DNA from: Eledone cirrhosa
Lineage: Eukaryota
NCBI GenBank assembly: GCA_964016885.1
Contig: OZ024743.1
Coordinates: forward strand, 69,316,001-69,380,000
Length of the DNA: 64,000 nt
Reading direction: 5' to 3'
The notes beneath the pieces are model-generated. The model worked only from the letters and a program-made list of their open reading frames with translations, searched no databases and was not told the origin of the DNA. Every line of letters begins with the position of its first letter. Within the stretch, counting starts at the first letter, position 1. Of the stretch, positions 27,555 to 28,402 are shown in pieces. Both the position numbers and the translations under genes were made by a program.

Positions 27555-28402
27555 TGATAATTAGAGTTAACACTCAATTGGAACCCTGCAACTATTAAGC
27601 TCCAAGTATAAATACTGAGCTGAATATAATATATAGTAAGAAACACAGTAAACCGTGTGTCTAAAATTACAAGGGTTGAAAAACCACATTTGTTTGAAAT
27701 ATTTAACCAAGAAGCAGACAGAATGATAACATATACAAACCGCCTCAATAACCATTATATCTCTCGGACAGATTATCCCTAATCTGTTTCGCCCTGAGTG
27801 TGTTTGTAACAGATAATCCTGGGCTTCATCAGCGAGAGATTCTGATTAAATGCCACAAACACTATTTGCCAACGTTCACACAGAAAGATGAATTTGTCAC
27901 CTCGTGCTCCGCTAATCAAACGTGGTAAGCGTATATTGAATAGAAATAGAAATAACAGTCAACACACACAACTTAATAAGCTCAACTTGTGAGGGAGCAG
28001 AAATATATATATGAAAATTAGAGTTAACACTCAATTGGAACCCTGCAACTATTAAGCTCCAAGTATAAATACTGAGCTGAATAATTTTCATATATATATT
28101 TCTGCTCCCTCACAAGTTTGAGCACGAGGTGACAAATTCATCTTTCTGTGTGAACGTTGGCAAATAGTGTTTGTGGCATTTAATCAGAATCTCTCGCTGA
28201 TGAAGCCCAGGATTATCTGTTACAAACACACTCAGGGCGAAACAGATTAGGGATAATCTGTCCGAGAGATATAATGGTTATTGAGGCGGTTTGTATATTT
28301 TATCATTCTGTCTGCTTCTTGGTTAAATATTTCAAACAAATGTGGTTTTTCAACCCTTGTAATTTAAGACACAAGGTTTACTGTGTTTCTTACTATATAT
28401 TA
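27555..28402. mobile_element. Young head-to-head hammerhead element with a 457-bp permuted unit (left arm 27555-28083, right arm 28084-28402)
   Basis: TTAGAGTTAACACTCAATTGG...GAGCTGAATA occurs at 27561 and 28018 (period 457). The right arm is a near-exact reverse complement with an internal deletion. Both ends lie in (TA)n. Confidence 0.9.
28189..28270 (+). ncRNA. Canonical type I hammerhead ribozyme (mirror copy 27759-27840 on minus)
   Basis: ATCTCTCG-CTGATGA-A-GCCC...GGGC-GAAA-CAGATT(AGGGAT)AATCTG-TC-CGAGAGAT. 8-bp stem I, 6-bp stem III arm, GUC triplet (cut after 28262). Confidence 0.92.

Follow-up and report, generated by a model that had tools for sequence, protein, structure and literature searches.

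A non-coding, two-armed hammerhead insertion in a (TA)n tract of Eledone cirrhosa with the geometry of Penelope-like elements

Anatomy of the locus and its predicted ribozyme

The window, i.e. the whole stretch of 64,000 nucleotides that was analysed (Eledone cirrhosa, assembly GCA_964016885.1, contig OZ024743.1, positions 69,316,001 to 69,380,000 of the forward strand), contains at positions 27555-28402 an insertion with (TA)n on both sides, which is composed of a left arm (a 457-bp unit plus 72 bp) and an inverted arm joined to it head to head. The features are listed by window position and strand.

27433-27555, no strand: left (TA)n target microsatellite, found by repeat search
27546-27556, minus: end site S1, the outer (RNA 3') end of the left arm, followed in the unit by a (UA)4-5 stretch able to pair with a cut (TA)n end
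27555-28083, minus: left arm, in which the 457-bp non-coding unit is present 1.16 times, with the ribozyme on the minus strand
27555-27623, minus: 'tail' of 69 bp between S1 and S2, at the outer end of one arm only, like the tail of Penelope-like elements (PLEs; PMC8557442, PMC3846280)
27624-27636, minus: end site S2, an AU-rich motif within the unit
27759-27840, minus: type I hammerhead, left-arm copy, found by motif scan
28012-28083, minus: partial second unit of 72 bp, which stops at the head-to-head junction with 2-nt microhomology
28082-28123, plus: first piece of the inverted arm, a copy of 28022-27980, followed by a 70-bp skip with 4-nt microhomology
28120-28405, plus: main inverted arm, a copy of 27909-27624 that stops at S2
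28167-28185, plus: upstream strand complementary to ribozyme loop II, a predicted blocker and possibly one side of a pseudoknot
28189-28270, plus: type I hammerhead, right-arm copy, with predicted cleavage after 28262
28211-28229, plus: conserved loop II motif that pairs with the upstream strand
28394-28582, no strand: right (TA)n target microsatellite, found by repeat search

The sequence 27546-27626 is repeated directly at 28003-28083 with a spacing of 457 and an identity of 80/81. In the original prediction, which was made from the sequence alone, the left arm was said to repeat its first ~66 bp after 457 bp; the spacing was recovered, but the repeated length is 72 bp, giving 1.16 units from 27555. 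The near-identical inverted arm that it described was found as well (28120-28405 is the reverse complement of 27909-27624 with 283/286 positions identical), together with a two-piece structure that it did not mention, in which 28082-28123 copies 28022-27980 with one extra T and 27910-27979 (70 bp) is omitted. In the ribozyme-sense orientation the arms stand head to head, and both 3' ends face outward into (TA)n, in agreement with the claim that both ends lie in such tracts. Since the insertion lies inside (TA)n, a target-site duplication is unreadable at the locus. The term 'permuted' was abandoned for the unit, because its outer ends fall at two fixed sites and not at random unit points. GC content of the left-arm unit was 35.7%. 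When Logan contigs of 4 runs were compared with 27560-28392, none spanned the inversion junction. Pfam gave no match for three short window frames, and Rfam miRNA matches at 27980-28123, far under the cut-offs, were rejected as a product of the junction hairpin.

Elsewhere in the window, 31344-31862 is part of an element that is very abundant in the genome, with 15,679 candidates, and of which an intact-frame copy was read at L146:761-8553; intact-frame copies carry a 1216-codon frame in a 4145-bp tandem plus inverted arrangement. This frame matched no Pfam family at E 0.01, and the element is presumably PLE-like, judging by its motifs. A short hammerhead-bearing element (L123, L149) has 3'-end sequence in common with it. 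The segments 26896-27060 and 22729-22792 belong to a short palindromic-core element, which occurs elsewhere in (TA)n beside copies of the 457-bp unit and in which no hammerhead was found by motif scan. A 34-bp satellite of ~479 copies occupies 47405-64000 and reaches the window end.

The full canonical hammerhead claimed for 28189-28270 was identified by motif scan and fold as a type I motif with a GUC site, in which stems I and III have 8 bp each and stem II, with its long loop, has 4 bp; CUGAUGA stands between stems I and II, and GAAA between stems II and III. At the Rfam gathering score nothing was obtained in the window, and the match to Hammerhead_HH9 was weak (14 bits against 52, E 3.8), so that motif scan and fold together are the basis for calling a ribozyme. 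The isolated 96-nt motif was predicted to take the active shape at -24.5 kcal/mol (z = -2.7; equalled by 1 of 200 shuffles). In the full unit, whether linear or circular, stems I and II fell to a predicted probability of 0.01, because 28167-28185 pairs with the loop II motif 28211-28229 over 17 of 19 nt, and stem III was stable in every computed fold. After 50 nt of upstream sequence was added, the probability of stem I was 0.00-0.02 in five of five copies of the 457-bp unit and 0.13 in a sister-family copy. The earlier description of the ribozyme as 'monomer-competent' therefore stands for the isolated motif but not once this upstream sequence is present.

Across 30 aligned copies, 88.6% of the cells of the blocker helix can pair, against 31-48% in whole-structure slid controls. 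For the blocker and the three ribozyme stems (30 sequences) no double changes were found, with no excess of covariation over shuffles; as the blocker carries one-sided changes only, without double compensation, it is conserved but not proven by covariation. Because the folding program cannot model pseudoknots, the blocker pairing might coexist with the active fold. The ribozyme is thus predicted, from fold modelling, to be blocked in its full context by a conserved upstream strand. Loop II might instead pair with one or the other strand of stem III, but this alternative had a probability of at most 0.01 and was discarded. The stability of the circle fold was modest (z = -2.3 on 60 shuffles).

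Genome copies, coding status and tandem length

The 457-bp unit and the 310-bp unit of the big array in the window were designated as family A and family B, respectively, in a genome of 3.0 Gb. For family A, 104 matches were obtained from 40 scored candidates, with full units 91-100% identical; its 31-nt core had 342 exact genome matches (control, 0), and a looser pattern taking in sister subfamilies had 532. The family A sample comprised 56 insertions (the best similarity matches and the first 40 of the 80 core-match loci listed), and a second sample comprised 14 insertions chosen by a 3'-end motif, 11 being absent from the core list. Duplicate fetches, L084-L086 (segmental duplicates of L083) and L014 (fused to a sister-family copy) were dropped from the counts, and L113 and L092 were additionally left out of the rare-variant comparison. 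L083-L086 (G000:C1:217.42-217.66 Mb) represent a single family A insertion that, together with its flanks, is present four times through segmental duplication.

In tandem copies the family A unit closes on itself, end to start, with no internal region and no LTR-internal-LTR layout, and the longest ATG frame on the circularised unit has 62 codons. Runs of at least two consecutive ribozyme-bearing units are absent at the studied locus and present at L113, L062 and other family A loci. Neither a shared or coding continuation at the 5' end nor an RT + GIY-YIG ORF joined to the unit was found in any of the 70 family A insertions. The shared 5' flank of L026, L067, L088 and L089 turned out to belong to a short element of its own, on the other side of a TA run, and not to a PLE body, and the long ORFs near family A copies lie beyond TA runs, on the 3' side or far off. 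A sister family, ~73% alike, has the same build in 24 loci read by eye, in which no shared or coding 5' continuation was seen. Coding PLEs are present in the genome (150 scored GIY-YIG matches; of 8 proteins scanned, 5 combine RVT_1 with GIY-YIG in a single frame). Comparison of the family A unit by blastn and nhmmer with 52 PLE-containing loci, a small sample of the PLEs of the genome, gave no hit (best E 0.43), and no autonomous PLE with the 3' end of the unit was found among these loci.

Under one alternative, the unit would be no more than what 5' truncation leaves of a coding PLE, namely its pLTR. It is built like a pLTR, with two end sites lying 140-210 nt downstream of the ribozyme, Xenopus retrozymes are related to pLTRs (bioRxiv 10.64898/2026.07.22.740005), and the samples cover 70 of several hundred insertions and 52 PLE-containing loci. 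Against this stand the closure of the unit on itself in tandem, with the 457-bp tandem joint present in the Logan contigs of 2 of the 4 runs, the absence of an ORF body adjoining any 5' end among the insertions read, and the 426 exact matches of the 3'-end motif versus 342 of the core, numbers that argue against a large hidden population with that exact 3' end. With a closed unit, hundreds of copies and no ORF attached in 70 insertions, a mere pLTR is very improbable, in accordance with the original prediction. An ancestral origin of the unit from a pLTR is possible.

The suggested relation between stem III and tandem copy number was tabulated for five families, with copies per locus taken as the exact core matches per locus among the first 100 matches listed for each family; exact patterns undercount old tandems.

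Family A (stem III 8 bp): 1.25 core matches per locus, 80 loci among the matches listed
Family B2 (4 bp with a self-complementary loop): 1.27 per locus, 79 loci among the matches listed
Family E (stem III 3 bp): 1.23 per locus, 81 loci among the matches listed
Family D (minimal): 1.69 per locus, 59 loci among the matches listed
Family B (minimal; 2-bp stem III in the window array): 8.3 per locus, 12 loci among the matches listed

In the whole genome, the core of family B has 3,918 exact matches. Family B2, a 320-bp relative of B (L191-L202; L147:450-900), has 834 exact matches, the core UUGAUAA, a self-complementary stem III and likewise two-armed insertions; its core we take to be a U3-A8 variant of the hammerhead. 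Family D (L203-L216) has 11,837 exact matches; its unit is ~470-540 bp long and contains a TA run as well as a minimal hammerhead.

By direct mapping, the median total length was 1.4 units in family A (at least 3 units in 4 of 56 insertions) and 9.4 in family B (12 of 13). The two minimal families stand above the others (8.3 and 1.69 versus 1.23-1.27), as the suggested relation would have it, but an 8-bp stem III ribozyme also occurs in a 7.2-unit array and a 5.8-unit arm of family A, the family with 3 bp is no higher than the one with 8 bp, and age confounds the comparison. Family B is the youngest, its copies within a locus being nearly identical versus 3 differences in 273 bp between the arms of the studied locus; a self-BLAST age proxy was noisy and was not relied on. 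In Acropora, multimers with canonical hammerheads reach 62 units (PMC7229834). Since family D is little above the strong-stem families, only five families are compared, B is the youngest and A has long arms, the correlation is a live but confounded trend and not a rule.

End sites, arm variants and the route of copying

Outer ends of the arms lie at unit position 1 (S1) or 70 (S2), each beside an AU-rich RNA stretch, unit position 22 being counted as S1 for the subfamily with a shorter tail. (TA)4 was present within 25 nt of 93 of 101 outer ends, against a background of 879/6700 (13%). All 24 classifiable two-armed family A loci (2 more were unclassifiable) combine an arm ending at S1 with an arm ending at S2, and one arm ends at each site at 11 of 11 two-armed family B loci; for these 35 first-sample loci the probability under independent site choice is at most 0.5^35 = 3e-11. 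In the second family A sample the ratio was 7/8, the exception being L258 (S2+S2), and for families A and B combined the tail is at one end only in 42 of 43 classifiable two-armed insertions. A coding PLE of the same genome, at L161, has the same S1/S2-type pattern. An inverted 5'-truncated copy stands head to head in 26 of 56 and 8 of 14 family A insertions in the two samples, respectively, and the arms are joined through 0-4 nt of microhomology or short extra pieces. The big array at 1283-10142 likewise has S1 and S2 ends, with 20 plus 8.6 units. That the studied locus and the big array have one geometry, and that this geometry is general, was correctly foreseen, as it recurs across family A and B insertions; it is already known from published PLE insertions (PMC8557442, PMC3846280). 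In the retrozyme literature searched, no count of the one-of-each rule or of arm haplotypes was found.

A short element with a head that is tRNA-like by eye is joined by its 3' end to the S2 motif in 9 of the 24 sister-family loci (L167-L190; e.g. L178 and L180), and ARAGORN run on 4 such loci gave no tRNA gene. Its recurrent insertion there suggests that S2 DNA may be a preferred cutting site.

Variants of the arms were compared for the template. In family B the two arms carry the same variants at all 8 informative loci. The 13 family B loci represent 8 haplotypes, and at 4 of the 13 a variant private within the sample is carried by nearly every copy of arrays of 6-17 units; in family A a rare variant is common to both arms at 8 of 24 two-armed loci. 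At L083 (u1-263 versus u70-373), L249, L252 and L103 each arm includes sequence missing from its partner, and the longer arm is the S1 arm 17 and 8 times and the S2 arm 7 and 3 times in families A and B, respectively. A shared haplotype combined with mutually non-contained arms favours priming from both DNA ends on one RNA over fold-back. All 81 arm 5' ends are more than 6 nt away from the cleavage site, which argues that the enzyme reads through it and that the template is ligated or uncleaved. Private variants fixed in nearly all copies favour a monomer circle, through frequent passage through a single unit. In the big array, one minority variant is shared by copy 12 of the left arm and copy 6 of the right arm, a second one by copies 12 and 19 of the left arm, and the seventh copy of the 7.2-unit family A array lacks the variant of the other six; such recurring or discordant minority variants are better fitted by a multimeric template or later conversion than by a pure monomer circle. 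Assembly polishing could have homogenised tandem copies and hidden variation.

On these data we regard it as probable that the locus is a young insertion of a non-coding hammerhead retrozyme, which was mobilised in trans by a PLE with both (TA)n ends priming on one RNA, probably a ligated circle. The unit would be transcribed, and its RNA would self-cleave and then be ligated to a circle. A PLE RT/GIY-YIG enzyme acting in trans would cut both strands of a (TA)n tract, after which one DNA end would start at S1 and the other at S2, aided by pairing with the AU-rich RNA. Each cDNA may then run round the unit for a variable length, and the two would be joined head to head, with a putative 70-nt template jump at the studied locus. 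In the full RNA the upstream strand might hold the ribozyme shut and so stabilise the template.

The nearest competitor keeps the two-ended priming and replaces the circle by an uncleaved linear multimer transcribed from an existing array. Array length would then be inherited from the source and limited by ribozyme cutting, which would give a correlation between stem III and copy number, and arrays are indeed longer in the minimal-ribozyme families; the predicted closure of the ribozyme in context and the recurrence of minority variants in separate copies and in both arms of the big array fit as well. Unprocessed, uncleaved RNA is also the main in vitro substrate of the anole PLE (PMC11167929), which counts against a circle. 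Yet locus-private variants are near fixation in the 6-17-unit arrays of 4 of 13 loci, and most family A loci hold less than 2 units (median 1.4), so that long sources are few while arms of 7.2 and 5.8 units exist; we consider a linear template unlikely, though it is the strongest of the alternatives. By a different route, a single priming would be followed by self-priming, the inverted arm being a DNA copy of the first arm trimmed by the endonuclease at S2 or S1. Such a fold-back, proposed for PLEs in PMC3846280, with the tail ascribed to endonuclease resolution in PMC8557442, would explain the shared haplotype directly; the right arm of the studied locus is contained in the left arm, and the short element hosted at S2 marks this motif as a possible cutting site. 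It conflicts with the four loci at which each arm holds sequence absent from the other and with the finding that either arm can be the longer one, and it is accordingly judged improbable.

Within the preferred reading of two-ended priming on one RNA, a narrower proposal is offered as tentative, and its full form is doubtful: one monomer circle would be copied simultaneously from both (TA)n ends by an asymmetric pair of PLE molecules, one at each site, with array length tuned by ribozyme closure, which in the strong-ribozyme family would be exerted by the 17-bp blocker. If true, simultaneous copying from two ends would explain the one-sided tail and the inverted arm of PLEs, and the reading of a monomer circle would be direct support for rolling-circle reverse transcription of retrozymes.

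Related systems and meaning of the insertion

Judged by the features that can be tested in sequence, the element is a metazoan non-LTR retrozyme inserted with PLE geometry. Metazoan non-LTR retrozymes (Cervera and de la Pena 2020, PMC7229834; Li et al., bioRxiv 10.64898/2026.07.22.740005) are likewise non-coding tandem units of a few hundred bases (150-450 bp in PMC7229834 and 51-972 bp in bioRxiv 10.64898/2026.07.22.740005) with less than 50% GC and one type I hammerhead per unit; they occur as monomers to multimers beside PLEs, and a stable helix III is usual in invertebrates. They accumulate as circles, and a PLE RT was proposed as the copying enzyme (PMC7229834). Li et al. call elements 'active' when two consecutive units are present; the studied locus, with one ribozyme per arm, lacks these, but other family A loci have them. 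Head-to-head arms, (TA)n targeting and fixed ends were found here, and no description of them was met in bioRxiv 10.64898/2026.07.22.740005 or in the available parts of PMC7229834. The review PMC7761336, as far as available, describes repeats in which no motif indicates the partner; in family A such an indication comes from the insertion geometry. The 2020 work (PMC7229834, PMC7761336) predicted a free ribozyme in most metazoan circles; in family A the prediction is a blocked ribozyme, a state that plant retrozymes and some mussel circles share.

Endonuclease-bearing PLE insertions (Craig et al. 2021, PMC8557442; Arkhipova et al. 2013, PMC3846280) resemble the locus in the partial tandem with an adjacent inverted 5'-truncated copy, head to head, in the tail at one end, in the microhomology junctions and in the (TA)n targets that hide the target duplication. 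Family A differs from them by having no RT/GIY-YIG frame, by a tail of 69 bp instead of 30-40 and by the complete stem III of its hammerhead, the PLE form being minimal. The protein of the anole Poseidon PAc (Frangieh et al. 2024, PMC11167929) cuts and extends both AT-rich DNA strands in vitro and starts at two adjacent internal RNA sites, which lie downstream of the hammerhead and define the tail, as S1 and S2 do in family A; in PAc, however, the start is AC-rich and without target homology, and no difference in start between the strands was seen, while the sites of family A are AU-rich and its arms almost always differ. Non-autonomous MRC1-like elements of Chlamys (PMC8557442) are also non-coding PLE partners with multicopy head-to-tail insertions, but they match the 3' end of an autonomous partner, and for family A none was found among the 52 PLE-containing loci. 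At least 8 further hammerhead variants were noted in TA-targeting elements in 52 loci taken for other purposes (L123, L124, L136, L148-L153, L155-L159, L161, L163, L164).

In an animal genome with many PLEs, an element of this sort is nothing unusual. In the literature the origin of the inverted arms and the one-sided tail of PLEs and the role of retrozyme circles as template are open (PMC8557442, PMC11167929, PMC7229834), and the value of the insertions lies in their use as test material, since young, short, non-coding copies permit counts. One arm per site in 42 of 43 insertions, one haplotype per insertion and arms that are not copies of each other leave a narrower set of models. The family A unit gives the published in vitro PLE assay a small RNA to work on, the copy-number question can be put to a proper test with the five ribozyme families, whose stem III ranges from minimal to 8 bp, and the hammerhead variants in other TA-targeting loci are material for a full census.
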